A DNA stretch of 64,000 nt from an uncultured Candidatus Saccharibacteria bacterium (GCA_964650645.1 CAZYUH010000001.1:79373-143372); one strand, 5' to 3'. Shown: positions 9,224-63,444, numbered from the stretch's first letter. The notes: generated from the letters alone by a model not told the origin. Numbers and translations: made by a program.

Positions 9224-9595
9224 CTACCCTACCACGACCTTGAAGCCGGCGTAGGCCATGCGCTTGGGGTCGTTGGGCATGACGAAGTCCTTCTTCTCGG
9301 CGTAGGCCTTGTCGAAGTGGGCCATCACCTTCTTGTTGACCGCGTTGCGGTGCGCCTTGTTCTTGAACGCGATGTAGGAGAACCAGACCTGCTCGCCCGG
9401 CTTGGGCTTTGCCATCTTCCCGAAAGTGGTCACGACATGCTTGGGCGCCGCGTCGTCAATAACGCACTCCTTGTAGTCGAGCGCGCCGAACTTGAGCCAC
9501 GCCTCCTTCCCCTCGGCCGCCATCTTCTTGTACGCGGCCGCCTTGGCCTTGGGAACGACCAGCACGAACCCGTCTACGTATCCTGCTTTTGTCAT
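9224..9595 (-). CDS. DUF1428 family protein
   Basis: 123 aa; YVDGFVLVVPKAKAAAYKKMA... matches conserved DUF1428 N-terminus. Confidence 0.7.
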   Translation of the reverse strand: MTKAGYVDGFVLVVPKAKAAAYKKMAAEGKEAWLKFGALDYKECVIDDAAPKHVVTTFGKMAKPKPGEQVWFSYIAFKNKAHRNAVNKKVMAHFDKAYAEKKDFVMPNDPKRMAYAGFKVVVG

Positions 9596-9746: not shown

Positions 9747-10565
9747 TTAGGCGGTTTGGAGCTGCTCGCGCTTGATCGGATACCACTCGAGTTCTGACTT
9801 CCAGAGGGAATACCTCTTTGGCCTTTCGGACACATCGAACCCCTTTCCGTGGGCGCACTGGCCGAACAAGTGGGATCCTTGCAGATCTACCAGCACTTCG
9901 CTGCTGGTTAGGTTTTCATCGGGAATGAGGCCGAGATGCACGTCCCATGGCATGAGGCGGTAATTGCGGGCAAATGCCTCCTCAATGCTTACCAGTTTGT
10001 GCTTATTGCATTCGAAATTTTCTGCAATACGCTCGTCCCACCACTGGAGATGCTTTTCCCACGCTTCACGCTCCCTACGCATTTGCTCTTCCGTATATTC
10101 CTGGTAACACGGGCGGCAATGATCGAGCTCTTCCTCAAGCGTGAGGAATGGGCCGATGAGTTCTTCGAATCTCCTGAATACCGGCAGAGGACACTCGATC
10201 GAGCGCCAACTATCGACATACGGGGTCCCTCCAGGCTGACGCTCATCATCCTTAAGGAAGAGTGCCTTGAAACAGTAATATCCGCGAGAAGCGCCGTGGC
10301 CGCTCCCATTATGGGTCTGCATATCGCAGAAGCGCACATCATGCCAGCCAAATCCTTCTTTTCGGCGGATACGGCTAATGACTTCTCGCGCGCAAAGCAC
10401 CAAGCTTTGCCCGTACTGGGGACTCGTGCTGAACACGCAGATCGGGCCAGGAATATGCGGGCCTCCGTCGTCGAAGATCGCATACTCCAGTTCGACGTCG
10501 TGGCCTGAATGCCCATCGTGATAGGCAAGATGCTTCAGATAAGGAAGTTCTGTTATCTGGTCCAT
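9747..10565 (-). CDS. hypothetical protein (His/Cys-rich), first gene of low-GC island
   Basis: 272 aa; HDGHSGHD, CRPCYQEY motifs; GC clearly lower than flanks. Confidence 0.5.
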   Translation of the reverse strand: MDQITELPYLKHLAYHDGHSGHDVELEYAIFDDGGPHIPGPICVFSTSPQYGQSLVLCAREVISRIRRKEGFGWHDVRFCDMQTHNGSGHGASRGYYCFKALFLKDDERQPGGTPYVDSWRSIECPLPVFRRFEELIGPFLTLEEELDHCRPCYQEYTEEQMRREREAWEKHLQWWDERIAENFECNKHKLVSIEEAFARNYRLMPWDVHLGLIPDENLTSSEVLVDLQGSHLFGQCAHGKGFDVSERPKRYSLWKSELEWYPIKREQLQTA

Positions 10566-10795: not shown

Positions 10796-13700
10796 TTAAT
10801 CTGAAAGATCTACCAATTTACAAAAAACATTCAGTAACATCATTTCGCTTATAGAGCCCGCCTCTGCGCTGGCTATCCGGGGATCAGCGACCACAACAGC
10901 CAGACACTGAGCTCTAGATATGGCCACATTGACTCGGTTACGATCGAGAATAAAGGCAAGGCCGCGCGAACCGTACTCCCCAAAACTAGAACAGAGCGAG
11001 AGGATGCAAACAGGTGCTTCTTGCCCCTGGAACTTGTCCACACTGCCGACGCGGGCACCGACCGGCAACTCAGCTTGTAGCGCTCGAACCTGCGCATTAT
11101 AGGGAGCAATGAAGAGAAAGTCCTCTAGCGTCAAAGGTCTTACGGTTCCATCGGAAGCCGTGTAAAGACGCCCTACCATCTCTTCATAGACTGCCACCAC
11201 CCTCCTTACCTCTTCATGGCTCTGCTGAATATTTCCATCATGCACAACGCCGCTAAACACAATGCCATGCTCTTTGACCACCAAACTGGCACTGGCCGGT
11301 ACTATAATTCTCTGATTAAGACAGTCGATATAGGAGCCCAAGCGTCCCTCGTAAATGCTTTCCGATATAAACCGGCAGACTGACGGGTGCATACGACGGG
11401 ATTCTCCAAGAAAGAGTCCGTAATCCAAAGGCACAACGGCGTGATAGATAGGCAGGTCTGCTTGGCTGGCTTTTAAATCCTTAAGGGCATATTGCAAGGA
11501 CGAAAGACCCGCATCGCCAGGATGTGTTCCCTGTATGGGTTGCTCAAGCTGCATCTGGTCTCCAAGAAGGACCATGTTTTGTGCGGCTCGGGACATTGCG
11601 ATAGCGTTTGCGAGCGATACTTGCCCAGCCTCATCTATGAAAAGAAAATCCAAAGCGCCCTCCCATTCAGGCAAGGTGAAGAGCCATGCAGTACCGCCGA
11701 CGACTCCGGAAGTGTAAGCTCCGCGAGCATCTTTATTACTTTGGATGTGCTTGAACGCGGGGTTATCCGAAAATAACGCGCCCTCATCATCTCCCCCAAC
11801 CTTTATTCCATTAAAGACTTCTCCCTGCTCCCTGACGGCCTCGCCGCAAGCGACAAGCAGATTTACAACGGCTTTGTGGCTATTTGAAGCGACACCGACT
11901 TTCTTCCCGGCCGCAAGCAGAGCTTTTATGACACGCGCTGCCGTATAAGTCTTGCCTGTACCGGGAGGCCCCTGAACAACAAGGCAGCCACCAGCCATCG
12001 AGCCCGTTACCCTGATGCCCGCATCGACAGTGACCTCTCCGGACTGTTGCAGAACAAGTGCAGGAGATATCCGCTGCAATAAGGAAACAACGGGAAGATG
12101 CAGGCCTTCTGAAAGATGCCGTACGGCCACTTCTGTCAGCGCTTTTTGTATTGAAGTCGCAGGCACGTACTCATAAGGAATCAGCGAACCGCGCTGAGGA
12201 AAGGCGCCATCGAACTTCTCATCCAAAGCCCTGTTCCCAATCTTAAGCTGGAGGGTACCCTCAGCCATATCCAAGCCCACCAAGGTTAGCTTTCCTTCAA
12301 TATTGTGCGTAAACATTACGGAAGTCTTGCCATCTCCAGCAAGCTTGCATTCCTGAGACGGGTCGAATTTGTATGTTTGTACCAGTGATTGCTTTTCGGC
12401 AACTGGCGATCCTACGGCCTGGACCCCCTGCATGCATCCGGAATCATCGCGCAGCTCTTCAGCAGTCGCCTCGACGCGATCGAACATGCGCCACCACACA
12501 GGCTTCTCTTCCCGTCGGTGAAAATCAATCAGGTCAGCAAGCGTTACGGACAGATAATCGCTCCGCTTGCGTAAATTAACAACCGCCTCCTGTCGCGCGA
12601 TAACTTCCGGCGGCACTTCCTTTGGAGTCTCTGAAGAGGAGCCGGTTGCCATTGAGGGCCGAGACACCGCGATATTATGTTCGCTTGCAATCCTTCTTAG
12701 CCATTGCAGCAGCTCAACAGTGGACTTGCAGTCGTCTTCATTGTAGTCGCGGATGCTCTTGAGGAGCGGGCTTTCCTGCCAATTATGTGGCTGCCTACTT
12801 TCCATCCAGTTTGCATACTGCACTATGGAATCGACCGCAGTACCAACCTCAGTTGTACGATGCGGCCTGTAGAGATGCTCGACCGACTTGATAGAGTAGC
12901 TATCCTCGCCGATGCGCAATCCGTGCCGAACAATCTTGTACAGGTCCACAAAGACCCCGGCGCGGAGCAAGGCATCAACTTCGTCCTGCCTGGTGTCATG
13001 ACGGGTACTCAAGCGGCTTACCGCGCTCTCTTCGTAAGCGGCGTAGTGGTAGATATGCATGCCGGGGTTTTCCCTCCAGCGCTTATGCACCCAGTCTATA
13101 AAACCCTCAAACGCGGATTTTTCCTCTTCACGGCTGTGCGCCCACCAGTCGACAAAATTTAGTTCTCCAGACGGGTCACGGAAAGAGACCCCGAAAAGAT
13201 ACTCTAGTCCGCCAGGAACAAGCGGGTACCCTTCCATATCGAAAAAGACATCTGCCTGATGATCAGGCGGGAGCGCAGCAAGTCCCACAGGCACCCCGTT
13301 CTCTCCGACCTGAGACAGCAGCTCATATCGTGCCGGCGCACTAGCGTTGCCTAACCGATCATCGCGCGTCTGACACTGCAAGCGAGCTTGCCCCACTAGC
13401 TTTTTCATCGAGTCTTCCGCAAGCCTGGGAACGGACTTGCCCGATGCCGCAGCAAGTCCTGCCATCGTTGTAATGCCCGCCCCTTTTAGCTTTTTTATCT
13501 GACCAACTGTTATATTGGCCACCCTCGCGAGAGAGTCCGTATCATCGAAAAATTGATTTGCGTGCGACCCCCAGCAACCATGTCCGGCGCCAAGCACAGG
13601 TTCCGGCCTATCAACCATATTTCCAGTAAAGCCGTCCTGGAGAGCAAGGAAGCTTTTCTTTAGTCGCCGGTAGTAGTGGATGAAGTCCTCGACGCGAAAC

Positions 13701-14215
13701 TCCACACGGTCCTTGTTGCCAAGTATCACGCCAAACTTTTCCGGCATTGGTTCGCCAGTCGCCGCAGCAAGCATCTCTGAGTAGCAACAGAGTTGGATGA
13801 TGTAGTAAGGCTTCGGGGAACGGGCGAGCTTAGTGTCCCATATCTGGTAATGCCCCGATTCGTCGAGTATAAGAAAGTCAGCAAAACCCGCAAATTGCCC
13901 CTCATTCAAGGCGGCTTGATAGATGATGGGGGCTTTTGCTTTGATAGCCGCGATAGTAGCTTCTCGGGCAGCAGCTACGTCCTTTTTAGAAATCTCTACC
14001 AAGCCGGGCTCAGCCGCCTTAAACTCCTCAAGTATCATGCGCTCATGCTCATCCCCCGTGCGAGCAATAAGCTTTTGGTCTTCAGATTCCTCATCAGGCG
14101 ATACTGCTTTTGGGTTTTCCAAATAATAGCGATCCATCCAAGAGGCAAAGGATGATTTGACATAGCAAACCAAATCGCTTGGAGAATATACGAGTTTTCC
14201 GGATATTTTTTTCAT
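10796..14215 (-). CDS. RecB-family (TM0106/Cas4-like PD-(D/E)xK) nuclease fused to Upf1/DNA2-like SF1 helicase; Nhi-like defence nuclease-helicase
   Basis: 1139 aa from MKKISGK; N-term GFADFLILDE...IWDTKLAR...QLCCYSEML (motifs II, III, QxxxY); C-term VVQGPPGTGKT Walker A, FLFIDEAGQVS Walker B, VLLGDQMQL, VDKFQGQE. Confidence 0.8.
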   Translation of the reverse strand: MKKISGKLVYSPSDLVCYVKSSFASWMDRYYLENPKAVSPDEESEDQKLIARTGDEHERMILEEFKAAEPGLVEISKKDVAAAREATIAAIKAKAPIIYQAALNEGQFAGFADFLILDESGHYQIWDTKLARSPKPYYIIQLCCYSEMLAAATGEPMPEKFGVILGNKDRVEFRVEDFIHYYRRLKKSFLALQDGFTGNMVDRPEPVLGAGHGCWGSHANQFFDDTDSLARVANITVGQIKKLKGAGITTMAGLAAASGKSVPRLAEDSMKKLVGQARLQCQTRDDRLGNASAPARYELLSQVGENGVPVGLAALPPDHQADVFFDMEGYPLVPGGLEYLFGVSFRDPSGELNFVDWWAHSREEEKSAFEGFIDWVHKRWRENPGMHIYHYAAYEESAVSRLSTRHDTRQDEVDALLRAGVFVDLYKIVRHGLRIGEDSYSIKSVEHLYRPHRTTEVGTAVDSIVQYANWMESRQPHNWQESPLLKSIRDYNEDDCKSTVELLQWLRRIASEHNIAVSRPSMATGSSSETPKEVPPEVIARQEAVVNLRKRSDYLSVTLADLIDFHRREEKPVWWRMFDRVEATAEELRDDSGCMQGVQAVGSPVAEKQSLVQTYKFDPSQECKLAGDGKTSVMFTHNIEGKLTLVGLDMAEGTLQLKIGNRALDEKFDGAFPQRGSLIPYEYVPATSIQKALTEVAVRHLSEGLHLPVVSLLQRISPALVLQQSGEVTVDAGIRVTGSMAGGCLVVQGPPGTGKTYTAARVIKALLAAGKKVGVASNSHKAVVNLLVACGEAVREQGEVFNGIKVGGDDEGALFSDNPAFKHIQSNKDARGAYTSGVVGGTAWLFTLPEWEGALDFLFIDEAGQVSLANAIAMSRAAQNMVLLGDQMQLEQPIQGTHPGDAGLSSLQYALKDLKASQADLPIYHAVVPLDYGLFLGESRRMHPSVCRFISESIYEGRLGSYIDCLNQRIIVPASASLVVKEHGIVFSGVVHDGNIQQSHEEVRRVVAVYEEMVGRLYTASDGTVRPLTLEDFLFIAPYNAQVRALQAELPVGARVGSVDKFQGQEAPVCILSLCSSFGEYGSRGLAFILDRNRVNVAISRAQCLAVVVADPRIASAEAGSISEMMLLNVFCKLVDLSD

Positions 14216-14321
14216 ACCACCCCTGGGGCCATACGTAGTGCAAACAGTAGCGCCTAAGAGCCGCCAGGGCAATACACAAATCATGGACTACATAGTTAAT
14301 TGCGCAATTAGGCCGGCAGCC

Positions 14322-14615
14322 CTACCAACCCACGCTTGTTACCAATCCGATCGAGCCTAGTATGCCCGCAACGCGCTCGCAATCCGCTCTTATGCCGCGA
14401 TATACGACCGCGCTGCCGCTGGTGTGGACGATATTCGCCAGCTGCGCCGCAGCCGCGGCCGAACATCCCGTCGCCTTAATCAATTGGCCTATTACGTCGT
14501 CAAAGGTGTGGCACTCGCAATTAAAAAGGGTCGTCTTCCACCCGGCGACAGTTGCGCCAAAATCAAGCTCAATCTTAATGATATTTTCGACTTTAGGTTC
14601 CATTGTTACAACCAC
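14322..14615 (-). CDS. ClpS-like (N-end rule adaptor fold) protein with substituted degron-pocket residues
   Basis: Aligns with E. coli ClpS core (VILVNDDYTPMEFVIDVL...AVHYQGKAICGVF) as TTLFNCECHTFDDVIGQL...IVHTSGSAVVYRG; NDD replaced by NCE. Confidence 0.5.
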   Translation of the reverse strand: MVVTMEPKVENIIKIELDFGATVAGWKTTLFNCECHTFDDVIGQLIKATGCSAAAAAQLANIVHTSGSAVVYRGIRADCERVAGILGSIGLVTSVGW

Positions 14616-14627
14616 GTAGTTAAACAG

Positions 14628-15050
14628 CTATTTGCCCTTCAGCGCAATCGCGATCCGCTCGACGGACCTAACCGGCTTTTTCTTTACGTCGTGCTCCCAT
14701 ATCCTTACGACCTTCCAGCCGAGCTTTTTGAGCTTGGCGTTATTCCTGCGGTCGCGGCGCATATTCTCCTTGATTTTCGGGAGCCAGTATTTCTTTGGCA
14801 GCCTCTTGCCCTGGTTCTTGAACTTATACCCGTGCCAGAAGGCCCCGTCCATGAACACGGCAACCTTCTTGGACACGAACACGATATCCGGCCTCCCGGG
14901 GAGCTTGCGGTAATGGATCCTGTAGCGGTAGCCCTTCTTGTAGAGCGCGGCGCTCACCAGCTTCCGCAGGGCGATCTCGGGCTTGATATTCTTGGAGCGT
15001 ATGAGCGACATGATCTCGCTCCGCCTCTCCTTGGAAAAGATGTCGGCCAT
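14628..15050 (-). CDS. vsr: very short patch repair endonuclease Vsr
   Basis: MADIFSKERRSEIMSLIRSKN...VFMDGAFWHGY canonical Vsr motifs. Confidence 0.85.
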   Translation of the reverse strand: MADIFSKERRSEIMSLIRSKNIKPEIALRKLVSAALYKKGYRYRIHYRKLPGRPDIVFVSKKVAVFMDGAFWHGYKFKNQGKRLPKKYWLPKIKENMRRDRRNNAKLKKLGWKVVRIWEHDVKKKPVRSVERIAIALKGK

Positions 15051-15093
15051 CTCAAGCAAGCATACCCCGCCGGCCACACAAATGCCGCCAAAT

Positions 15094-15300
15094 CTATCTA
15101 AACAGGTCCCTGGTCGAAACTCCTAAAGATATTGCCAATTTCTCAATAGTTTGAAGAGTAATGTTTTTCTTACCGCACTCAATCCTGCTTACATAAGCCT
15201 TGTCTGCACCTAGAAGTTTCGCTAGGTCTTCTTGGGACAATCCCTTCTTAATTCTCAACTGCTTAATTGTGTACCCAAAACGGGAAAAAATGGTCTGCAT
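15094..15300 (-). CDS. XRE-family HTH regulator (R-M controller C-protein-like)
   Basis: 68 aa; LRIKKGLSQEDLAKLLGADKAYVSRIECGKKNITLQTIEKLAISLGV HTH_3. Confidence 0.8.
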   Translation of the reverse strand: MQTIFSRFGYTIKQLRIKKGLSQEDLAKLLGADKAYVSRIECGKKNITLQTIEKLAISLGVSTRDLFR

Positions 15301-15426
15301 CCTTATTCACACCATAAACCCTTTTTATTTGATAGCAAGTTGTATCATAATACAACTATAGCAAATTGGAGGCTTTTCGGAAGATTATTTTGCTTGATAG
15401 GCTGAGAAAGATATAATTTACACTCT

Positions 15427-16494
15427 ATGGCTTCTCTTAAAAATAAGAAACCAACAATCATAAGCCTCTTTGCAGGGGCTGGCGGACTAGATATCGGCAT
15501 GAAGCAAGCCGGATATCACGTTGCTGTTGCGCTAGATTTTGACCACGATAGCTGCGAAACCTTAAAGACCAATTTCAAGGACTCTGCAGTTATCGAAGGC
15601 GATATTACACAAGTATCGACTGAGCAAATCCTTGAAGCTGGAGGTTTAAAGGTCGGCGAAGTGGATCTTTTAATCGGAGGACCTCCATGCCAACCATTCT
15701 CAAAATCCGCATTTTGGAATGGTTCAAAGGGTTTAAAAGACCCCAGGGCCGTAACCCTTCATGAGTATGTTCGAGTCTTACGGGATACAAAGCCTAAGGC
15801 TTTTCTTTTGGAGAATGTGTTTGGTCTTCTATACAAAAACAACAGCGACGCATTTTCTTTTTTGCAGGACGAATTCGGAAAGCTGGGGTACGAAATTGTT
15901 TACAAGGTAGTTAATACTGCGGACTACGGAGTACCGCAAACCCGCCAACGCTTGATCATACTCGGATCCAGGAAAGGCAGACTAGCATTCCCTGAGCAGA
16001 CCCACCGCGACCCTTTGAAGGAAGAGGGGCTGACATTATTCGAGAAAAAATTACCGACCTACATTACAGCAAAAGAAGCATTTAAGGGATTGAGACACGA
16101 CTGGAAGGAAGTGCCGGCAGAATTAACTGTAAATGGAAAGTGGGGCCATTTATTGAAAGATATTCCACCCGGAGATAACTATCTTTTCTATACTGAGAAG
16201 AAGGGGCATCCAAATCCCCTATTCGAATGGCGCTCTCGCTATTGGACCTTCCTTCTGAAGTTAGATCCAAAAAGACCATCTTGGACCATCCAGGCTCAAC
16301 CGGGGCCTTACGTCGGGCCATTTCACTGGGACAATCGGAGAATGACTCTTGCGGAACGGAAAAGGATACAAACTTTCCCCGATAACTACATATTTGTTGG
16401 CAAGAGAGGTTCTGTGCAGAAGCAAATCGGCAATGCTGTCCCTTCAGAACTAGGGCGAGTTTTAGGCAAGGCGATTAAGGATCAATTATTTTAA
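15427..16494 (+). CDS. dcm: DNA (cytosine-5)-methyltransferase
   Basis: 355 aa; motif I FAGAGGLDIGM, motif IV GGPPCQPFS, motif VI ENVFGL. Confidence 0.9.
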   Translation: MASLKNKKPTIISLFAGAGGLDIGMKQAGYHVAVALDFDHDSCETLKTNFKDSAVIEGDITQVSTEQILEAGGLKVGEVDLLIGGPPCQPFSKSAFWNGSKGLKDPRAVTLHEYVRVLRDTKPKAFLLENVFGLLYKNNSDAFSFLQDEFGKLGYEIVYKVVNTADYGVPQTRQRLIILGSRKGRLAFPEQTHRDPLKEEGLTLFEKKLPTYITAKEAFKGLRHDWKEVPAELTVNGKWGHLLKDIPPGDNYLFYTEKKGHPNPLFEWRSRYWTFLLKLDPKRPSWTIQAQPGPYVGPFHWDNRRMTLAERKRIQTFPDNYIFVGKRGSVQKQIGNAVPSELGRVLGKAIKDQLF

Positions 16495-17157
16495 AGCTTT
16501 CTCACCTCGGCGAGGTATTCTTGCCCAGTGGTCATAAAATTCTTGCCGCGATTTGAATTCGCCACGCTCTTCGCGAATGCGGTCTATCTCCATTACCGCA
16601 CCAACGTAGTCTCGTGTAGCGCTAGAAGCCGTATGCGATGCGACTTTCCACGGCTCAACAACAAGAAGCTCAAAATTGCTTACCTTATTGGCTGCCGCAT
16701 CAACATCAAAAATGGCTATCAAATCTATATGATGCGTATAGTCGGCAAAGGGGCGAATAGTCTGTGGGAATTTCTTATCCTGATGCTTTAAGTAGGTCCC
16801 GAAGGAGTACAGGGTTATTCGAGACTGAGTACGGTTGGGATTACGACCACGTCTTGCCGCCTTAATATCGAGGGCGACCAACGCGTTCTTAAAATGCTCC
16901 CCCGTCAACTCCAAGTCCGGATAGTGGCGCATGCCACCTTCCGTTACGGACACGCTCTTCAGCTTATCCGTCTTACGCTTGAGATGAGCAATAAGGGCCC
17001 CTTCGATAATATTACCTAGTGTTCCAGGTTCAAGATCCAGGGGAATAATTTCTCCCGTACTAGTGGCAAAACCGATAATATCGAATACGAAGTCCGAGTA
17101 CATTTCACGCACCCACGCCTTCATTTCGTTCACATTGGCTTTTTTGAGACTTGCCAT
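16486..17157 (-). CDS. putative type II restriction endonuclease (PD-(D/E)xK), cognate of adjacent C5-MTase
   Basis: 223 aa; YPDLEL...ALDIK fits PD-x(n)-(D/E)xK; tail-to-tail 9-bp overlap with dcm; low GC. Confidence 0.5.
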   Translation of the reverse strand: MASLKKANVNEMKAWVREMYSDFVFDIIGFATSTGEIIPLDLEPGTLGNIIEGALIAHLKRKTDKLKSVSVTEGGMRHYPDLELTGEHFKNALVALDIKAARRGRNPNRTQSRITLYSFGTYLKHQDKKFPQTIRPFADYTHHIDLIAIFDVDAAANKVSNFELLVVEPWKVASHTASSATRDYVGAVMEIDRIREERGEFKSRQEFYDHWARIPRRGEKALK

Positions 17158-17343
17158 AATGCTATCCTACACCGGTATCTTATTTATTGACAGAGCTTAG
17201 ATTTTATACCACTATCTCAAAATTACACAGGTTATTACGTAATCGGAAATAAAAAAGCTGCCTCATAGCGCCCACAAGAGCCTCATGTTTATTAGGATTA
17301 TTGGCTGCAGATCCCTTTTGCAAAAGTAATTAAATATTAAAGC

Positions 17344-18900
17344 TTACGAAAAACTCAAACCAAACATATCCTGAAGCAGTTTCTCAACTATTGCCTTATA
17401 GTCTTCTACTTGCTGGTCGGTTACGTTTGGAGTTGCCCTGACATGATTTAAATCACATCTCAACTTGTAGTAATATTCTATTTTTTTTAATGTATTGGCA
17501 TCAATAGGTAGAGTCTTAATAACTTCTTTTTGCAAGTCGGATCTATTTTCAATTATTGCCTTAAACTTTGCCGCCCCCAATCCTTGCTCGTTTATTAAGT
17601 ACTCTTTATAAGCAATGTCGACGGTACTATCCAATACAATAAGGGCAATTCTATTCTTTTGACTAAAAGGGAACTTCGATATGAGGTCAGCGGCGATGAC
17701 ACTTTCCAGCAGCCCTGCACTCCAGGGCTTCTCGGCAACTATCAACTCATTCGCGCCGATGACTTTTTGATGCCATTTTTGCTTACTTGCCGGCGCTTTT
17801 GGTAAGTAGTTCTTTGGAATGCTAGTAATAGTGTCTAGCTTTTCTTCCAAAACCACGCCAGTTTTATAAGGAAAAACTTGAGTATCCCATTTACCCTGAA
17901 GACTCCTGGATACTTGAGCAAATTTTTTAGTCGCATCAATGACACTCTGTTGCAGAGCCTGGAAGATGGGATGCTTGGTATTAATGCCTGACTTACTACT
18001 GTCCCAAGGCATGTCGCGCGACTGCCCCTTTATTCTTACTATAGTACGCACCAGGGAAATATTGTAATGAGGATTGCCAACCATGCCCGCAGAAAAACCG
18101 ACCGAAAAGTCATTCAACCCTCGTGCAATCAACCTATTGTTACAGTATACAAATACCCCATAAGACTTATCCGGGTCGCCCGGATGGTCAATTAAACCTG
18201 CCAATATCTCAACGTCAACCTCTCTGCCCTCTATCGGTATCACTCCGGAGAACTTTGTAGGGAAAAGGCCGGGCGGATAAGACCATTGGTCATCAAAGTT
18301 TACGGCTTCTATTTTATCTCCATTGATTGTAATCATGGCGCCCCTGTCTAAAAATTTTGAATACACTTCCGATAGATGGACTTTTAAATTAGAAATCCCC
18401 TCCGGGGTCAGATGGACACGAAGCTTACTTAGTTCAATTAAGGTAGTGTACGGGCTGAGAGTGTTATGTGATTCCGCATAAGGGAGCTGCCAGCTTGGAT
18501 CATCTGTAATCCAGTGTTCGTCAAATTTCACTGTATAAGACTTTGCATTTTCATATCTAGAATGAATAGCGATATCCTGCGCTAAAGCAACAACCGCACG
18601 CTTACTGCCCACTCCAAAGTATCCAATTACACCATCACCAACATCGTTTGTTGTTTTGCCCGGACTAACAACATGGTCGAGTTTAGATTCTTCTATTCCT
18701 CCCGCATTGTCTTCTATTGATATAGTCTGCTGGTTTTCATCAATGGATATCTTTATCTCTAAATCAGCGCGCTTATTTTTTGACCAAAGATCAATAGCGT
18801 TATCGATAAGTTCGCATATTGCACGCTTCAAATCGTATTCTGAAATTATGGAAAGGAATATTCTTTTTTCAGGCGTAGCATCTAATATTTTCGGGTGCAT
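17344..18900 (-). CDS. MORC/MutL-like GHKL ATPase (HATPase_c_3) of unknown function
   Basis: 518 aa from MHPKIL; Bergerat N-box ELIDNAIDL, G1 box DNAGGI, G2 GYFGVGSK; remainder has no recognisable domain. Confidence 0.7.
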   Translation of the reverse strand: MHPKILDATPEKRIFLSIISEYDLKRAICELIDNAIDLWSKNKRADLEIKISIDENQQTISIEDNAGGIEESKLDHVVSPGKTTNDVGDGVIGYFGVGSKRAVVALAQDIAIHSRYENAKSYTVKFDEHWITDDPSWQLPYAESHNTLSPYTTLIELSKLRVHLTPEGISNLKVHLSEVYSKFLDRGAMITINGDKIEAVNFDDQWSYPPGLFPTKFSGVIPIEGREVDVEILAGLIDHPGDPDKSYGVFVYCNNRLIARGLNDFSVGFSAGMVGNPHYNISLVRTIVRIKGQSRDMPWDSSKSGINTKHPIFQALQQSVIDATKKFAQVSRSLQGKWDTQVFPYKTGVVLEEKLDTITSIPKNYLPKAPASKQKWHQKVIGANELIVAEKPWSAGLLESVIAADLISKFPFSQKNRIALIVLDSTVDIAYKEYLINEQGLGAAKFKAIIENRSDLQKEVIKTLPIDANTLKKIEYYYKLRCDLNHVRATPNVTDQQVEDYKAIVEKLLQDMFGLSFS

Positions 18901-18972
18901 ATATAAAACAAATCTTACGCACAAAGAATACGCCTTTTAAGGCTCTTTACAAGGCCTCAACAAAGCGACCCA

Positions 18973-19167
18973 TCATTTCCCCTTCCAGTCGCGGATTATG
19001 AGCTTTTTGTTCTTCAGGTCCACTTGCACGGTAAGCTTCTGCTTCTCCTTCCAGCCGAACTCCTTAATAGCCTCCATGGGGAGGCTTATCGAATAGCTCC
19101 TGCCCGCCACCTTGGTGATCTTGCGAACCGGCTTCGCGCTCAAACTCGCCTTGGGTCGTCCTGCCAT
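18973..19167 (-). CDS. AbrB/MazE/SpoVT-family DNA-binding protein
   Basis: 64 aa; SISLPMEAIKEFGW swapped-hairpin barrel signature. Confidence 0.55.
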   Translation of the reverse strand: MAGRPKASLSAKPVRKITKVAGRSYSISLPMEAIKEFGWKEKQKLTVQVDLKNKKLIIRDWKGK

Positions 19168-19277
19168 ACCGGCATTTTACACCCAGAATCGCGCAGCTAA
19201 TTGCGCAATTACCATCCCTTTCCTTCTTCTCCTCCCAGCCTCGCCCCTCTCCTCGCTTTCCCCGCCTCACCCCTCCC

Positions 19278-19307
19278 AATCTATTCTAGTGTTTTGCAAA
19301 ATTCCAG
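19278..19307. repeat. direct repeat copy 1 (GTGTTTTGCAAAATTCCAGAATAGATTT) containing inverted arms AATCTATTCT/AGAATAGATT
   Basis: Seen directly; identical 27-28 nt copy at 19580-19607. Confidence 0.8.
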
Positions 19308-19565
19308 AATAGATTTGCCGCGAGGCGTTATCTTATGCCGGACGCTGTTGCCATCGCTGCGCTTAAGGACCAACCCGGCAATGGCGAGCTTGCGGATATG
19401 GTCCGAGGCGTTGATATAGCCGATACGGAGCCGCTCGGACACCTCGGCAACCGAAAGCTCGGGACTGCGCTGCAATACGTCCAATATCTGCAGCCGGCGG
19501 TGGCTGGCCGCCCCTTTTATAACCCTCTCGATCTTCCTAAAATTCGCCTGCGCCATGGCCGGCAC
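19281..19565 (-). CDS. ArsR/MarR-like winged-HTH regulator
   Basis: 94 aa; RLQILDVLQRSPELSVAEVSERLRIGYINASDHIRKLAIAGLV. Confidence 0.65.
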   Translation of the reverse strand: MPAMAQANFRKIERVIKGAASHRRLQILDVLQRSPELSVAEVSERLRIGYINASDHIRKLAIAGLVLKRSDGNSVRHKITPRGKSILEFCKTLE

Positions 19566-19579
19566 TATACACCATGCTG

Positions 19580-19607
19580 GTGTTTTGCAAAATTCCAGAA
19601 TAGATTT
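19580..19607. repeat. direct repeat copy 2, in the promoter region of the ArsR-like gene
   Basis: Identical to 19280-19307. Confidence 0.8.
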
Positions 19608-19796
19608 TCTCCTTGGATGAATTGAGCCGCATACCTGCGTAGCTAATTGCTAATTAGCTACATACTATTGACACTTTTCGCTATACAGAGTAATTTGCTC
19701 TCCAGCAGTTCCCCTCTCCGTTGTGCGTTAGCAAACACCACCCGGCGCCCCGGTTACGGGGTATTGCTAAGCAATCCATCACAAATGGAGCGGGTT

Positions 19797-20210
19797 ATGG
19801 AAAACGTTAAAATTATCGCATCTGGCCTGCCTGACAGCACTGTTATCGGAGGCATTGAAAACAACAGCGGCAAAACCGAGGTTGAGAAAAATTACAGAGG
19901 GGTCAATGCAAGGAACCTCCCTGAGCTTTTCTCAAAAATCGGAGAGATTGAGGGTTACTTCGAAGCTCTGGCTACGCTCTGGTGCGATGGCGAGCTAACT
20001 CTTGTCATTGAGAAGGGTTCTCACTTTTTCTCGGGAGTCCTGACAACCTATGAGGATAATCTCATCGAGAGGACGGTCAAGATAATTGATCGTCTTGCAG
20101 TCGAATTGTCCCAAGCGAAATATGATGCTGATAGTTACAAAATAACCTACAAATTCTCGCGCGCGGTAGAGTTTAATGACTTGGTAAACGATATCATTCC
20201 CCGACACTAA
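19797..20210 (+). CDS. hypothetical protein
   Basis: Start at ATG 19797 preceded by GGAG 6 nt upstream; no recognisable domain; low GC. Confidence 0.4.
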   Translation: MENVKIIASGLPDSTVIGGIENNSGKTEVEKNYRGVNARNLPELFSKIGEIEGYFEALATLWCDGELTLVIEKGSHFFSGVLTTYEDNLIERTVKIIDRLAVELSQAKYDADSYKITYKFSRAVEFNDLVNDIIPRH

Positions 20211-20220
20211 ATTCTGCGCA

Positions 20221-20252
20221 AAACTCCCCGACCGGATACGGTCGGGGTTCTT
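20221..20252. terminator. bidirectional rho-independent terminator (CCCCGACCG-GATAC-GGTCGGGG + TTCTTTTTT)
   Basis: Perfect hairpin between convergent genes at right edge of low-GC island. Confidence 0.6.
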
Positions 20253-20254
20253 TT

Positions 20255-20854
20255 TTATCGAGATCCGCTGCACGCGCCTGAAGCCCAGAGGCCGCGGCCC
20301 AGCAATCGGGCCTGCGCCTCTGCGGCCCTGAACTCCGCCTGGTACTTATAGGGCGCGCTGTAGGTGTACTCGTGCGCGTAGCCCTGCTCTACCAGGTATT
20401 CGTTTACCGGCAGGCCGTCGCTGCGGTACACGTACGCGAGCAAGCGGCCGTATTTGTCGCGCTCGCCTTGCGAGGGGTCCTTTTCAAGCATTACGCGCTG
20501 GCCCGCCAGAAGCTCTTTCGTCTTGTCGGAGGCCTCCTTGCCGAAGCACTGCACCGCCTTGCGCGGGTCAACCGTCTCGGGCGTGTCGATGCCTATGAAC
20601 CGGACGGTTTCCGTTTTGCCTTCAATGCTTACGGAAACAGTATCGCCGTCCACTACCCTTATGACGGCGTACGTGCCGCTAGCGGCGGGCGGTATTGTTG
20701 ACGCTTGAGTGCTCGTCGCAACAGGCGTCTGCGGCTGCTCGTGCGGAGCCGCAGGAGCGGGAGCGTCGGGCGAAAAGAACCCCGCAAGCGCGAGCAGCAT
20801 AAAAATGCTCATCACTGCAACTGCAGTCCATCGCGCTCGTTTGCCCATGCACAC
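20255..20854 (-). CDS. secreted thermonuclease (staphylococcal nuclease homologue)
   Basis: Signal/TM then VIRVVDGDT...IGIDTPE...DKYGRLLAYVY SNase motifs. Confidence 0.85.
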   Translation of the reverse strand: MCMGKRARWTAVAVMSIFMLLALAGFFSPDAPAPAAPHEQPQTPVATSTQASTIPPAASGTYAVIRVVDGDTVSVSIEGKTETVRFIGIDTPETVDPRKAVQCFGKEASDKTKELLAGQRVMLEKDPSQGERDKYGRLLAYVYRSDGLPVNEYLVEQGYAHEYTYSAPYKYQAEFRAAEAQARLLGRGLWASGACSGSR

Positions 20855-20931: not shown

Positions 20932-21693
20932 CTAGAAGTCATCCAGGGCCGATTCGGAATCGGGCTGCAAAACGGCGCCTTTCACATGCCCCTTGAAGGC
21001 CTCCATTACGTAGCCCGGGCAATTGGCGCGGACATTCCTATCAACAAAGACGCGCTTCGCATCGCTTCGCGCAAGGAGCACCTCCACGAATCGCACGCTG
21101 CCCGGATTGTCCGGCCCGGCCCGGTTACCATCCCTCTCAATCCATAAATGATAGAACCGCAGAGATCCTATCTCCCTGCCCTCGGAGAGTGCGATAGCCT
21201 CGGCGGCGCGCGGGCAATTCAGTATGAAGGAGCGGCTTGCGCCGTGCGCCAGAGTGATGACGCAGCGGTTGCCGTGGAAGATAGCATACGCCACGTAGAC
21301 ACCGGCACCATCATCCGACTCATAGCTTCTGACCTTTAATTCCGCCGGTATGTAGTCCTTTTCCCTCGGGAGGCCGCTCCGAGCGGAACGAGGCTCCTCC
21401 TTCTTGGGCCACCGTCCGTTTCCGGTAAGCTTTTGGAACCACTCCCAATGATCCGGAAGCGGTTCGCCCGTCTTCGGGTCGATGATTACCATTCTTGGCG
21501 TGCGCGCTCCTGATACAGGGAATGCATCGGCAGGCGTCCCGCTTTTCGTTTCTTCTTCAGGCTCGCCGGACATAGCCATACACCCTGCAAGAACCGCAGG
21601 CTCGCTGTCCGCGCCGATAGCCGCAGCCTCTGCCGTTCCTACCGCAGACTGCTTTTGCTTCTTTGTACGCGTTAAGAGCTTTTTAATACCCAA
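20932..21693 (-). CDS. hypothetical protein
   Basis: 253 aa ORF, coding-like codon usage, no recognised domain. Confidence 0.5.
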   Translation of the reverse strand: MGIKKLLTRTKKQKQSAVGTAEAAAIGADSEPAVLAGCMAMSGEPEEETKSGTPADAFPVSGARTPRMVIIDPKTGEPLPDHWEWFQKLTGNGRWPKKEEPRSARSGLPREKDYIPAELKVRSYESDDGAGVYVAYAIFHGNRCVITLAHGASRSFILNCPRAAEAIALSEGREIGSLRFYHLWIERDGNRAGPDNPGSVRFVEVLLARSDAKRVFVDRNVRANCPGYVMEAFKGHVKGAVLQPDSESALDDF

Positions 21694-21858
21694 TGGAGTC
21701 TCCTATGAGAAGCATCATGATGAAGCGAACTGCCCATCTGCGCGTATTAGACACAAAAATTGCTTTAAAGTCAATATTCTGCAGAACATTAACGCGCAGT
21801 GACAAGACGGCGCGGCATGGTAGGGTGAGGGCAGCCACCACCCACAGGAGAGTTCCTT

Positions 21859-22449
21859 ATGACAACGCACGTGCTCCCGCCCGAGGCCGAAAGCCTCGAC
21901 GTTATGCGCTCGCTCGCGCGCAGCGCGTTCCTCGAGGGCGAATGCTACGCCTTCGCCATCGCGGTGCACCGCGGCACCGGGCTTCCCATCTTCGGGCTTA
22001 TGGAGGGCGCAGTGCCGCGCCACGCATTCGCCTACTGGCCCGATAAGGAAGCGTTCGTGGACGTGCGGGGCGAGCACGCCATGCACAGCCCCGAGCTCGG
22101 AGCGCCTTTCGGCCACCGCGCGCCCTACCATCTTGAAGAGATATCCGCATCGAAACTCTTCCGGCAGAGGCCCGTATGCGACAACTCCATAGGCTTCGCC
22201 GCGCGCATGGCCGAATTCATCATGCCGCACCTTCCGTGGAAGAAGAGCCGCGACGAGCGGGCCCGCGAGTTCTGCGACGAGCTCGAAGCCCTATGCCGGA
22301 AGCGCGGGTTCTGGATACGCAGCCCCTACCCCGCGCAAAAGCCCATCCTGTACGAAGGAGACGCGGACGAGGCGGGCTACACGATACAACCCGCCGACAC
22401 CGGTATGGGGTACACGATAGACCGGCGGCTCAAGGGAGAGCCTGCCTGA
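21859..22449 (+). CDS. hypothetical protein
   Basis: 196 aa ORF, only plus-strand gene in this stretch, no recognised domain. Confidence 0.5.
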   Translation: MTTHVLPPEAESLDVMRSLARSAFLEGECYAFAIAVHRGTGLPIFGLMEGAVPRHAFAYWPDKEAFVDVRGEHAMHSPELGAPFGHRAPYHLEEISASKLFRQRPVCDNSIGFAARMAEFIMPHLPWKKSRDERAREFCDELEALCRKRGFWIRSPYPAQKPILYEGDADEAGYTIQPADTGMGYTIDRRLKGEPA

Positions 22450-22489
22450 TAGCAAGCGCCCGGCCATTGTATGGCCGGGCGTTAGTATT

Positions 22490-22921
22490 TTAGCGCACGA
22501 GGTGCAGGACAGTCTTCGGGTCCGAAAGAGGCTCGTCCTCGTCGCTTATCCGCACGTCTTCGAACGCAACGCGCTTGAGCGCGCATGCGCGGATCAGCGC
22601 CCTCCTGTAGGGCCCCCACTGCGGCTTGGACTTGCTATAAATCCACAGCTTGCCGATGCGGTGCTTTGCCAGCTGGGCCGCGGCCTTCTTGGCCAACCGC
22701 TCGATATCCTCCTCCCGCTCAAGGAGATACTCGTAGCCTAGGATCATATCGTTCTCATGCAGGAGCCCGTGCTTGCCCGAGAATATGAAGAACTCCCGGC
22801 CCTTCCCTTGCGCTATTTCGCGCACTTTGGATATATGCTCCCCCAGGTAGCGCTTGCGCGCCTGCATGTAGTTCTTGCCCGGGTCCTTCTCCCGGCTGCA
22901 CATAGTGCATACGGCCTCCAT
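22490..22921 (-). CDS. hypothetical protein (Cys-x2-Cys N-terminus, possible Rossmann-like FIFSGKHGLL)
   Basis: 143 aa ORF. Confidence 0.45.
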   Translation of the reverse strand: MEAVCTMCSREKDPGKNYMQARKRYLGEHISKVREIAQGKGREFFIFSGKHGLLHENDMILGYEYLLEREEDIERLAKKAAAQLAKHRIGKLWIYSKSKPQWGPYRRALIRACALKRVAFEDVRISDEDEPLSDPKTVLHLVR

Positions 22922-22988: not shown

Positions 22989-23345
22989 CTAGGCGCCGTG
23001 GGCGCGCTCGGCCAGCCGCAGGAGGCGCCGCAGGTCCTTGTGGTTGGGCAGGGCTTCCGCGACTAGCGCCCAGAACGCCGGGCCGTGGTTGAACTCTCTG
23101 AGGTGGCACAACTCGTGCACCACGACGTAATCCAATACCTCCGGCGGCAGGAACAGGAGCTTGTAGTTGAAGTTGAGGTTGCCGGCGCTCGAGCAACTCC
23201 CCCACCGGCTTGTGGAGTTCTTTATGAAGATGCGCCTGACCGCGTGGTTGTAGTGGCGGTTGTAGTGCGCCACGCGCGCGTGCACGAGCGCGCGGGCCGC
23301 CTCCTTGTGGCGCAGGTAGTGGCGGTGGTCGCGGCGGCGCAGCAT
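22989..23345 (-). CDS. DUF45/YgjP-like zinc metallohydrolase (short form)
   Basis: RWGSCS...NLNFNYKL...YVVVHELCHLREFNHGPAFWALV (HExxH). Confidence 0.7.
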   Translation of the reverse strand: MLRRRDHRHYLRHKEAARALVHARVAHYNRHYNHAVRRIFIKNSTSRWGSCSSAGNLNFNYKLLFLPPEVLDYVVVHELCHLREFNHGPAFWALVAEALPNHKDLRRLLRLAERAHGA

Positions 23346-23462: not shown

Positions 23463-23852
23463 TTACTCGCGCTCCATGCTGTAGAGGCAGTAGCGGCCGG
23501 CGCCCACCAGGAACACGGCGAACGCGCCCACCGCGAGCATAAGCTCGAGCTCGTGCGTGCCGCGCGGGATGCCCACCAGCGCGAGCGCCACCAGCATCTC
23601 GATGCCGAGCACGAGGCCCGCCAACCGCGGCGCGATGCCGAGCGCGAGCATGAGGCCGCCGATGACCTCGATGGCGGCGATGAAAGCCGCCGTTCCCGGA
23701 GGCAGGCCCAATCCGGCGAAGAAGCCCTCCGTGCGGCCCAAATCCTGGAGCTTCATCCAGCCATGGCTTATAAACACCCAGCCCGTAGCGAGGCGCACCA
23801 AGAGGAGCCCCATGGCCTTGTGGTACGCGAAATGCGTGACTTTCTTTATCAT
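23463..23852 (-). CDS. DoxX family membrane protein
   Basis: 129 aa, 4 TM, LATGWVFISHGWMKL DoxX signature. Confidence 0.75.
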   Translation of the reverse strand: MIKKVTHFAYHKAMGLLLVRLATGWVFISHGWMKLQDLGRTEGFFAGLGLPPGTAAFIAAIEVIGGLMLALGIAPRLAGLVLGIEMLVALALVGIPRGTHELELMLAVGAFAVFLVGAGRYCLYSMERE

Positions 23853-40317: not shown

Positions 40318-40430
40318 CGCTGCGCTACATGCTGGCCGTCTCGTGTTAGAACCGTGGTCGGTCAAGCCCCGCTTAGTCCGATTGGCTTCCTTTTAGCTTA
40401 TCAAAACGACGCGTCTCGTGCGCCTAGTTA
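40318..40430. repeat. att-like repeat A: tRNA-3'-end-like segment (GCTGGCCGTCTCGTGTTAGAACC) + TCAAGCCCCGCTTAGTCCG + CGACGCGTCTCGTGCGC
   Basis: Shares blocks with repeats at 43251-43375 and 43985-44060 and with the 3' end of tRNA-Gln. Confidence 0.6.
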
Positions 40431-40777
40431 TGGTCAGGACAACCACTCTTCGTGTAGCTTTCGTATGTCGCCCATGTAATCGGGGCAACTCCGCTAATTG
40501 ATTTCTTGATGAAATCTAAGTCCTCAGGGGTTAGCTCTTCCTCCTTTTCATAAGGCCCCCATTCAGCCATTTTCTCAATTAAATGTGAGACAAAGTAGGA
40601 CGTTTTTGAACCGTAAGTGCTAGATAGCTTTAAATTGCAGGAGAAATTATTTGAATGGGTCAGCACCACTGCGAGAGGTGCTTCCTCGGGGCCAGAGATA
40701 AAAACAATCGGGTGATAGGCCTCGGCGAAGCTTCTCTTTTTGCCGATTAATATGTCTCCTTCTTGAAAATTATTCAT
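40424..40777 (-). CDS. hypothetical protein (low GC)
   Basis: 117 aa ORF. Confidence 0.45.
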   Translation of the reverse strand: MNNFQEGDILIGKKRSFAEAYHPIVFISGPEEAPLAVVLTHSNNFSCNLKLSSTYGSKTSYFVSHLIEKMAEWGPYEKEEELTPEDLDFIKKSISGVAPITWATYESYTKSGCPDHN

Positions 40778-40815
40778 ATTTAAAAAGTGACAAAAGTGAC
40801 ACTTTTTACCAAAAA

Positions 40816-41847
40816 CTAGAACTGAACAAAAATCTGCTTATGATCCGAATCAATCCTTATTTGATTACCATAAGGCATTGGTATTTGCGGTTCGGTGTGC
40901 CCAAAGTCCATATTCTGCACAATAGGTATTTCCTTGTTATACGCTCGTACTGTTTTAACTATTACTTCTTGCTGTTCTTTCCGATAGGCATCTCGCTCTT
41001 CTGGATTTCGAAGCTTATCAAATTCACGAGCCTTAGCTCGTCCAACAACTACTCCTTTGATTCGTTCAAGGATGCCTCGTTCTCCAAACGCCCTAAAGAC
41101 TCGATTTACATAGTCAGCCGAAGGTATTTCTTCAGAAGTTTCCATCATGAGTACAATATTCTCAAATTGTTCTAGCGACGGAATCTGTACTCCGTGTCGT
41201 AACATTTCGTCAACTGACTCTACACAACCACCCCAGAGCAAGCCCTCACCATTTTTATTACCATCCCAAGACCAACCTGCATTTGGCTCATATTCACGTT
41301 CTTTGTCTAATTGAGTTTTGTCACCCCAATCCAGTCCAAGATCATTGAAGGACTCGCTGGGTAGTAGCTCAAATTCACCATCATCAAACAGAGCATGCTT
41401 TATGTACTTAACCGTGTACGGATTCATTTCTTTTTGATGTGCAAATTGTGTAAATAACGCCGCTCCGTAAAAGGATGGAGTTCCATTTAAAAAAAGAAAA
41501 TTAGCAAAGTGAGAATTGTCGCTAAAGCCAAAGAAAGGTTTTGGATTATTTGCAAATGGTTCACTTGGTAGGTTTTTAACATAGGTCACCTGAATATCCC
41601 CACCAAGCGTTGAAATGACAGCTTTTATATTTGGGTCAGAGAAAGCAGCGATTAGATCGTTAGCTTTCTCTTCCAGAGTAGCGTCTAACTTTGCTGTGGC
41701 AGGGTATTCTATCGGCTCAAGCTCAAAGATCTCTCGAAGACGTTTTAAACCAAGTTCGTGTACATGCGGCCAAACAGCAGAAGCAGCGAAGCTTGGTGAA
41801 ATGATTGCTACCTTGTCTCCTTTTTTTAGTTTCGATAACTCTTTCAT
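40816..41847 (-). CDS. S66 family LD-carboxypeptidase (LdcA/MccF-like)
   Basis: LKKGDKVAIISPS N-terminal nucleophile region and overall S66 pattern. Confidence 0.8.
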   Translation of the reverse strand: MKELSKLKKGDKVAIISPSFAASAVWPHVHELGLKRLREIFELEPIEYPATAKLDATLEEKANDLIAAFSDPNIKAVISTLGGDIQVTYVKNLPSEPFANNPKPFFGFSDNSHFANFLFLNGTPSFYGAALFTQFAHQKEMNPYTVKYIKHALFDDGEFELLPSESFNDLGLDWGDKTQLDKEREYEPNAGWSWDGNKNGEGLLWGGCVESVDEMLRHGVQIPSLEQFENIVLMMETSEEIPSADYVNRVFRAFGERGILERIKGVVVGRAKAREFDKLRNPEERDAYRKEQQEVIVKTVRAYNKEIPIVQNMDFGHTEPQIPMPYGNQIRIDSDHKQIFVQF

Positions 41848-41851
41848 AGAT

Positions 41852-42424
41852 TTAAAAATTTACTCTGCTCTTGATTAAATCAAACATCTTTTGATACCCC
41901 TGAGCATTTGGATGAAGTCCGTCAGCAAGGTCTGAGGTAGTATCCAAAACATCAAACATATCAATGAATTGGAAGCCGTGCTTGTCAGCTGTATCTTTCA
42001 TGACTGTATTGTATTTCTGAATTTCATCATTGAGAAAACGACTGCCCTTTGCCGAACGCCACTCGTCATTAACCTTGGTTGCACCGATGACGGTGATTTT
42101 GTTGGTAAAAGCTTTTGCTTGTGTGATGAGTTCTTCAAGGTTCTTCTGATAGTTAGTCAAAGGGACCTTATTAACATCAGACTCGTTCGGGTACTTTGAG
42201 TCATTGATACCGATAGCAAAAATTATATCTGACGGCTCTATCACTCCCGCTTCGATACTGAATCTTTTCAAAAGGTCTTCGCTAGTCTCGCCACATACAC
42301 CAAAGTTGTATAGATGACCGTAATCATCTGAAGATAGTGTTTTTCGTAGTCTTCCAGCCCAGCCCAAAGCTTCGCTATCGCAAGAGCCAAAAGTGATACT
42401 GTCTCCCCATACGCCGATTGTCAT
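41852..42424 (-). CDS. SGNH/GDSL hydrolase
   Basis: GDSIT block I, GIND block, DGLHPN block V. Confidence 0.85.
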   Translation of the reverse strand: MTIGVWGDSITFGSCDSEALGWAGRLRKTLSSDDYGHLYNFGVCGETSEDLLKRFSIEAGVIEPSDIIFAIGINDSKYPNESDVNKVPLTNYQKNLEELITQAKAFTNKITVIGATKVNDEWRSAKGSRFLNDEIQKYNTVMKDTADKHGFQFIDMFDVLDTTSDLADGLHPNAQGYQKMFDLIKSRVNF

Positions 42425-63342: not shown

Positions 63343-63387
63343 ATAACACAAGGGTAGCATTCAAATCCCCGACCCCGCCGACTTGTC

Positions 63388-63424
63388 CACACAAAGCAAA
63401 CCCCCGGCCGATGGCCGGGGGTTT
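63388..63424 (-). terminator. rho-independent terminator after pilin gene (CCCCCGGCC-ATCG-GCCGGGGG + T-rich)
   Basis: Seen directly. Confidence 0.6.
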
Positions 63425-63444
63425 GCTTGCCACAACGACTTAGA

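Follow-up and report, generated by a model that had tools for sequence, protein, structure and literature searches.

A small gene encoding a ClpS-like protein lies on the minus strand of the window, as we call the whole 64-kb stretch of DNA that was analyzed, between the gene of a Vsr very-short-patch mismatch endonuclease (14628..15077) and that of a large nuclease-helicase (10796 to 14215 or 14284, depending on the start codon), with all three genes on the same strand, just as the original prediction had placed them. This position raises the question of whether the protein is part of a defense operon and serves as a co-opted adaptor, modulator, or sensor of the adjoining nuclease-helicase, as had been proposed, or whether the two genes came to lie side by side by accident. 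As an explanation of the whole, we favor with moderate confidence that the protein is an N-terminus-binding Clp adaptor of a ClpS subfamily with a Cys-x-Cys (C-x-C) motif, which is a long-standing resident of a variable island and has no coupling to the nuclease-helicase.

The longest open reading frame of the gene (14322..14615, minus strand) begins with a GTG and encodes 97 residues. This GTG at 14615 is in frame with and upstream of an ATG at 14603, which is the start in the NCBI and JGI gene calls and agrees with the start of a 94%-identical homolog (P0001). The real start is the ATG at 14603, resulting in a coding sequence of 14322..14603 on the minus strand and a product of 93 residues, supported by the open reading frame, the Pfam ClpS match, the fold, and the pN/pS ratio. 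For comparison with the original prediction, residue numbers are given in the 97-aa (GTG-start) numbering. Exactly this 93-aa product is recorded in NCBI, JGI, and Logan as a "hypothetical protein". The doubt as to whether the reading frame might be non-coding could be dispelled by a comparison with the corresponding gene of a related locus (L005), which differed at 20 synonymous and 6 non-synonymous positions. As the resulting pN/pS was 0.09, the gene is a real coding gene under purifying selection.

The protein aligns along the ClpS core, as had been noticed before, and it matched the Pfam ClpS family (PF02617) with 41.2 bits (E=1.4e-10), the gathering score being 23. The NCBIfam ClpS equivalog models all remained far below their cut-offs, with a best value of 21.3 bits versus a cut-off of 117. 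An AlphaFold2 model, for which 15 homologs were used, had a mean pLDDT of 77 and the order beta-alpha-alpha-beta-alpha-beta, and its top 38 Foldseek matches in the PDB were all ClpS structures, with TM scores of up to 0.90 on the target and rmsd values of 1.0-1.5 Å; C-terminal domains of ribosomal L7/L12 ranked next. The gene product is a ClpS-fold protein. Residues 1-22 of the model were disordered, with a pLDDT below 50, and this flexible N-terminal extension (14538..14603, minus strand, residues 5-26 in the 97-aa numbering) was poorly conserved in the alignment. Fold, size, and disordered N-terminal extension are shared with bacterial ClpS, the N-degron adaptor of ClpAP and ClpCP with structures from E. 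coli, Caulobacter, and M. smegmatis.

When the family profile was compared with the PDB, the best sequence match was the ClpS-like N-domain of human UBR2 (E=3e-11), and this domain and that of UBR1 (7e-8) both ranked ahead of bacterial ClpS. UBR2 has the motif LFNDEVHTY and both conserved Cys residues, like the family of the window protein, but its N-domain is part of a 1,750-aa E3 ligase, carries Asp instead of Cys at position 33, and has no equivalent of H64. Among bacterial proteins, this ClpS family with its H-T-F motif and two conserved Cys may be the one most closely related to the N-recognin domain of eukaryotes.

The original prediction had emphasized the N-degron pocket, in which the NDD of E. 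coli ClpS appeared to be replaced by NCE. The strings TTLFNCECHTFDDV and IVHTSG are indeed both present in the protein, and in the alignment, N32-C33-E34-C35-H36-T37-F38 correspond to N34-D35-D36-Y37-T38-P39-M40 of E. coli ClpS. N32 to H36 are encoded by the codons AAT TGC GAG TGC CAC (14508..14522, minus strand, by direct reading) and belong to the beta1-alpha1 loop at the rim of the ClpS pocket. H64, whose codon is at 14424..14426 on the minus strand, aligns on H66 of E. coli ClpS, and the pocket His of AVHYQG is therefore kept in IVHTSG, as had been predicted. With regard to the claimed exchange of NDD for NCE, the part that stood is the D35-to-Cys replacement, which alters the pocket, whereas the D36-to-Glu exchange is not unusual, as Glu occupies this position in 43 of 109 canonical relatives, and the Y37-to-Cys exchange had to be added. 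Judging from the alignment, the distinctive changes are D35 to Cys and Y37 to Cys and not D36 to Glu.

In E. coli ClpS, the substrate site consists of D35, D36, and H66, and a triple alanine mutant binds substrate far less (PMC9810338). In the window protein, the first of these residues is Cys, the second is conservatively exchanged, and the third is retained, so that it does not have the complete E. coli-type substrate site. The role of D35 was considered here without Asp33 of M. smegmatis ClpS, whose equivalent in E. coli numbering is ambiguous. The exchange of D35, one of the three named substrate-site residues, for Cys is a point against taking canonical N-degron binding for granted. The pocket of the window protein has in common with bacterial ClpS the Asn, the His (H66), and an acidic residue at position 36, and it differs by Cys at positions 35 and 37 (E. 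coli numbering).

The Cys residues are not a local oddity. When 1.84 billion proteins were searched with a profile built from the first 15 homologs, 2,056 cluster representatives were detected at E<=1e-3. We aligned the query and E. coli ClpS with the 164 nearest relatives, giving 166 sequences in all. Fifty-four of the 166 aligned sequences had N-C-x-C-H, with D, E, N, Y, or H as the middle residue, and 109 had the canonical form, in which an invariant Asp is followed by D/E and then W/V/I. Both Cys residues are invariant in the subfamily (54/54), as is the Asp in its canonical relatives (109/109), and in this alignment, the D35-to-Cys replacement therefore appears as a conserved feature and not as decay. 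H36, F38, C51, H64, and C79 are common to both groups. Canonical proteins with N-D-[DE]-[WVI]-H-T-F from Rhodothermales, Ignavibacteria, Bacteroidota, and some Elusimicrobia are 40-58% identical overall to the window protein but, instead of the Cys pair, have Asp and a hydrophobic residue at positions 33 and 35, respectively. The N-C-x-C-H motif is the mark of a large, widespread, and uncharacterized ClpS subfamily. We consider the value of this locus to lie mainly in this conserved and apparently unstudied group, with Cys-x-Cys in place of the invariant rim Asp (E. coli D35).

The C-x-C type made up 122 of 171 loci that were fetched from GTDB species genomes and JGI metagenome contigs. In genome records, C-x-C loci were found in Elusimicrobia, Armatimonadota, and Methylomirabilota/NC10, and canonical relatives in Rhodothermales/Salinibacter, Ignavibacteria, Kapabacteria, and Bacteroidota. 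The nearest relatives of the window protein among the best 80 of 546 genome matches were from Elusimicrobia (54-60% identity). JGI metagenome contigs contained no closer relative above 62% identity, and a collection of viral contigs contained no relative. No assembly was represented twice among the best 80 of 546 genome matches, which fits one copy per genome, albeit as weak evidence. The recurrent neighbors of C-x-C ClpS genes outside the clade of the window comprised a response regulator-MBL hydrolase, an aldo-keto reductase, an O-methyltransferase, TPR proteins, an MFS transporter, a DegT aminotransferase, and a GT2 glycosyltransferase, and no defense genes were among them.

The two motif forms can apparently replace each other. 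NCEC/NDDW, NCDC/DDDW, and NCDC/NDDV exchanges were found between proteins with 67-79% identity in the remainder of the sequence, and for this reason we conclude that the two-residue switch between the C-x-C and the canonical form happened repeatedly, several times independently, in otherwise orthologous proteins. The swap pairs L059/P0041, P0112/P0106, L013/L072, and L033/P0085 display a concerted two-residue change of D-x-[W/V/E] versus C-x-C.

The host could be placed by its CTP synthase, whose homologs with 73-76% identity came from Kaiserbacteria, Nomurabacteria, Adlerbacteria, Staskawiczbacteria, and Paceibacterota; all named ones belong to Parcubacteria/Patescibacteria, which points to Parcubacteria (CPR) as the host phylum. 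The host contig is 754 kb long. The window has a GC content of 59.6% and a core GC3 of 0.82-0.93, which is unusually high for Parcubacteria.

Listed along the minus strand in order of decreasing coordinates, the gene table, which was compiled from ORF calls, Pfam, NCBIfam, and PADLOC, contains DoxX (23463-23852), a YgjP-like gene (22989-23345), two small conserved genes (21715-22921), and genes for a 253-aa protein (20932-21693) and an SNase-like nuclease (20255-20854), all on the minus strand, followed by a gene for a 187-aa protein on the plus strand (19647-20210) and ArsR-like (19281-19565) and AbrB/MazE-like (18973-19167) genes on the minus strand. The subsequent cassette (15070..18981, both strands) consists of the genes for a GHKL ATPase (17344-18924, minus), an EcoRV-like endonuclease (16486-17157, minus), a Dcm methylase (15427-16494, plus), and a controller (C) protein (15094-15300, minus). 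Then come, all on the minus strand, vsr (Pfam Vsr E=7e-24; TIGR00632 131.6 bits vs 97.85), the ClpS-like gene, the gene of the nuclease-helicase, which combines a TM0106-family RecB-like nuclease, an RNase-H-like part, and an SF1 helicase (10796-14215; Pfam; TIGR03491 193 bits vs 97), a gene for a 272-aa protein without family match (9747-10565), and DUF1428 (9224-9595).

The composition of these blocks differs. The GC3 of the C-protein, Dcm, EcoRV-like, and GHKL genes is 0.40-0.49 versus 0.82-0.93 in core genes, that of vsr is core-like (0.85), and values of 0.54, 0.62, and 0.62 were found for the nuclease-helicase gene, the 272-aa gene, and the ClpS-like gene, respectively; that of the ClpS-like gene is also below core values in relatives. 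The possibility that a core housekeeping gene flanks an insertion hot spot was weakened by this GC3 of 0.62 and by the rarity of the gene in CPR genomes. As only one other CPR genome was represented among the best 80 of 546 genome matches, the ClpS-like gene seems to have entered the CPR lineage by horizontal transfer long ago and not to belong to its core genes.

Comparison with related loci demonstrated how variable the surroundings are. In L001, from a related organism with core genes 75-86% identical to those of the window, the flanks are the same (DoxX, YgjP, DUF1428, LexA, MsrB, PIF1), but the contents of the island between them differ: it contains PF1765-like, DUF2726, MazG-like, a SLFN-type helicase-S24 peptidase fusion, the ClpS-like gene, and a 64-aa gene, and no nuclease-helicase. 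The ClpS-like gene of L001 is 66% identical to that of the window and overlaps the helicase-S24 gene by 11 nt. In L005, L006, L007, and L183, the ClpS-like protein is 94% identical, and the order is MazG, SLFN-helicase-S24, Vsr, ClpS-like, and an unrelated gene. By blastn, a 768-bp block of Vsr and the ClpS-like gene (14302..15069, minus strand) is 87.5% identical at the nucleotide level to L005, L006, and L183, and homology stops at both of its borders, on one side where vsr starts and on the other 20 nt past the ClpS stop codon. This block is the only DNA that the window shares with L005 and L006, and L183 also matches 18982-20470 with 97% identity. In L183 (1498-7514), the place of the 3.9-kb R-M/GHKL cassette between these two matching regions (15070-18981) is taken by a cassette of 6 kb that contains DUF2726, a reverse transcriptase, a MazG-like gene, and SLFN-helicase-S24. 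As the left flank is 97% and the right flank with Vsr and ClpS 87.5% identical to L183, the blocks of the island differ in age.

According to these alignments, the ClpS-like gene has thus kept its place, whereas the cassettes to its left and right were exchanged, and the locus is a clean example of defense-island cassette replacement in a small CPR genome. Because the gene is a persistent passenger in an island of exchanged cassettes, neither the R-M system nor the nuclease-helicase should be credited with it as a component. The claimed membership in a defense operon has to be abandoned, as the neighbors differ among relatives, homology ends shortly after the stop codon, and the subfamily is found among housekeeping genes elsewhere. 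In agreement with the earlier statement that no ClpS fold has been described as part of an R-M or Nhi system, and with the lack of any sign of such a system at this locus, our literature searches for such systems found nothing, those for ClpS together with defense islands or anti-phage defense returned nothing relevant, and one review mentions phage-encoded ClpS in jumbo phages.

It was in principle conceivable that the protein is a generic accessory of defense islands in the CPR lineage that supplies a protease with phage proteins, or with processed or activated defense proteins, and belongs to no particular system. In each of the six distinct contexts of the window's own clade, a defense gene of the same orientation immediately precedes the ClpS-like gene, the upstream genes being Vsr and R-M in the window, SLFN-helicase-S24 in L001, Vsr, SLFN-helicase-S24, and a reverse transcriptase in L005/L183, type III Mod and Res in L010, and type I HsdR in L015 (a MAG labelled Ca. 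Taylorbacteria with a 51%-identical ClpS-like protein), and both the island-like rather than core-like GC3 and the patchy CPR distribution would fit. However, insertions at a hot spot beside a persistent gene would produce the same arrangement, and a hot spot accounts for the upstream defense genes, albeit without proof. The partners differ each time without any conserved system, the subfamily resides among housekeeping genes in Elusimicrobia, Armatimonadota, and Methylomirabilota, PADLOC-DB contains no family matching the protein at E<=0.01, and neither viral contigs nor the literature provided a tie between ClpS and defense. We therefore regard a generic accessory role as unlikely, although we keep it as an alternative.

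A second alternative concerns the protein itself, which could be an orphan ClpS fold that has lost the adaptor role and binds a ligand other than an N-terminus, such as a metal held by Cys33, Cys35, His36, and His64, without a Clp unfoldase. The loss of D35 and the invariant Cys pair beside two conserved His residues would be compatible with this, as would crystals of M. smegmatis ClpS, in which a divalent metal on the equivalent His bridges the N-terminus of the peptide (bioRxiv 10.1101/2024.06.12.598358). Moreover, no Clp partner came to light: the 64-kb window contains no ClpA, ClpC, or ClpP gene and no second ClpS, and in 66 of the first 92 loci, which were picked by motif, no reading frame with two Walker A motifs, as expected for two AAA+ modules, was seen within 6 kb of the ClpS-like gene, with the reservation that this is a motif heuristic only. 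In the same loci and by the same heuristic, no clpS-clpA/clpC linkage was found. Such linkage is not universal for ClpS. In the alignment, the residue equivalent to E79, which contacts ClpA in E. coli, is not conserved in the C-x-C subfamily, so that the window protein differs from bacterial ClpS in this contact residue as well as in the adjoining genes. On the other hand, proteins that hardly differ otherwise have changed between C-x-C and D-x-[W/V] several times, which speaks for a common function of both forms, and N32, E34, H36, F38, H64, and the N-terminal extension are all kept, which makes an orphan ligand binder rather unlikely.

In the explanation that we favor, a C-x-C ClpS that still acts as a Clp adaptor, the free N-terminal residue of proteins would be bound in the pocket that lies at the beta1-alpha1 loop and helix 2, and the bound protein would be handed via the disordered N-terminal extension to a Clp unfoldase-protease. 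We infer this family-type activity, both N-terminus binding and delivery to a Clp unfoldase, from the conservation of the five residues just named, the retained N-terminal extension, and the recurrent exchange between C-x-C and canonical sequences. The Cys33/Cys35 pair, which takes the place of the canonical Asp and the hydrophobic loop residue, may serve in packing, in a metal site, or as a redox-sensitive disulfide. As two conserved His residues adjoin the Cys pair at the pocket rim and a metal was found in the M. smegmatis crystals, a metal- or redox-dependent pocket is a reasonable hypothesis. Defense cassettes came and went to the left and right of the persistent ClpS-like gene, and its adjacency to the nuclease-helicase would be an accident of this island turnover.

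If the Cys pair alters N-terminal specificity or makes binding metal- or redox-dependent, the bacterial N-degron rules would be extended, and C-x-C ClpS could also interest groups that engineer ClpS as an N-terminal amino-acid binder. A literature search for surveys of ClpS homologs as N-terminal binders yielded nothing useful. A bolder combination of these ideas would be that C-x-C ClpS constitutes a distinct class of N-recognins, in which a Cys-x-Cys(-His)...His site at the rim replaces the Asp and ligand binding is metal-bridged or redox-gated, and that it is kept in the CPR defense island to route phage proteins, or cleaved or activated defense proteins, to proteolysis; taken in full, we consider this improbable.

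As the block of Vsr and the ClpS-like gene is common to the window and to L005, L006, and L183 with different genes on both sides, the two genes could also be suspected to form a functional unit. This is very improbable, since L001, L010, and L015 lack Vsr although they contain the ClpS-like gene, no Vsr was found beside C-x-C ClpS in other phyla, and the GC3 of Vsr is core-like, whereas that of the ClpS-like gene is not.

The partnership with the nuclease-helicase was examined from both sides. The longest reading frame of the nuclease-helicase (10796-14284, minus strand, 1162 aa) overcalls the start, as its homologs have 1135-1146 residues and the JGI call has 1139. The true start is probably M24 at 14215, as judged from these lengths, giving 1139 aa and therefore a gap of 106 nt to the ClpS-like gene. 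Homologs with 68-76% identity number in the thousands and include sequences from Acidimicrobiia, Verrucomicrobia, Acidobacteria, Nitrospira, and Kaiserbacteria, and because this identity is found across at least five phyla, the comparison indicates a recent horizontal spread. Five distinct contexts of homologs with 73-76% identity had type I R-M, E2/JAB/ThiF (Bub-type), GmrSD, and SNF2 or SF1 helicases nearby, and in none of the five was a ClpS present. Conversely, among 177 ClpS-like loci, the helicase occurred only in contigs of the same strain, and the arrangement of the window was found elsewhere only in such contigs with 100% identity; the predicted co-occurrence of the two genes was thus not borne out. 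The nuclease-helicase is not co-inherited with the ClpS-like gene, and in the sequence comparison their junction presents itself as a recombination breakpoint.

A co-opted adaptor, sensor, or modulator of the TM0106-nuclease/helicase, for which the common strand, a gap of only 37-106 nt without a terminator-like site, and the similar GC3 (0.62 vs 0.54) could be adduced, is therefore rejected as extremely improbable on the comparative evidence of same-strain adjacency, a different downstream gene in 94%-identical relatives with the breakpoint 20 nt past the ClpS stop, and reciprocal contexts in which ClpS is missing in 5/5 and a WYL regulator is upstream in 3/5.

Rather than being part of a ClpS unit, the nuclease-helicase is a candidate for a separately acquired single-gene defense system. 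Like Nhi- and Mokosh-type nuclease-helicases, it joins a PD-(D/E)xK nuclease to an SF1 helicase, and its homologs were in defense islands in 5/5 contexts, but PADLOC gave only partial matches to the helicase domains of MkoA/MkoC and no Nhi match. None of the Nhi- or Mokosh-type systems has a ClpS component. The nuclease-helicase is followed downstream, with a 39-aa ORF in between, by the gene of the 272-aa protein (9747-10565, minus), which has no Pfam or PADLOC match, is absent from relatives without the helicase, and has a similar GC3 of 0.62; it probably arrived together with the nuclease-helicase. Homologs of the nuclease-helicase elsewhere have other small unknown genes downstream.

Several further observations were made in the island and its surroundings. 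The 526-aa GHKL/HATPase_c_3 ATPase (17344-18924, minus) adjoins the EcoRV-like endonuclease and Dcm, shares their low GC3, and had no PADLOC match and only a weak NCBIfam match to an MzaB-like family. It may be an uncharacterized accessory of the 5mC R-M module. The SLFN-group-3-type helicase-S24 fusion of the relatives (668-672 aa; L001 5799-7805, L005 1121-3139, L183 5475-7493) has a weak GIY-YIG match and a LexA-like S24 part and is preceded by a MazG-like gene, and the fusion and the MazG-like protein together are a candidate defense module. Farther along the window, six tRNA genes are located between 44.2 and 53.2 kb, and 62869-63942 contains two prepilin-like ORFs in tandem. A second block of low GC3 (0.33-0.48 vs about 0.85 in the core) extends from 40424 to 43197 and includes a 343-aa ORF (40816-41847) that resembles LD-carboxypeptidases and a 190-aa ORF (41852-42424) that resembles SGNH hydrolases, both as recognized by eye. 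A 106-aa ORF of this block (42877-43197), which had no Pfam match, is 60% identical to the product of the gene that directly follows the ClpS-like gene in L015.
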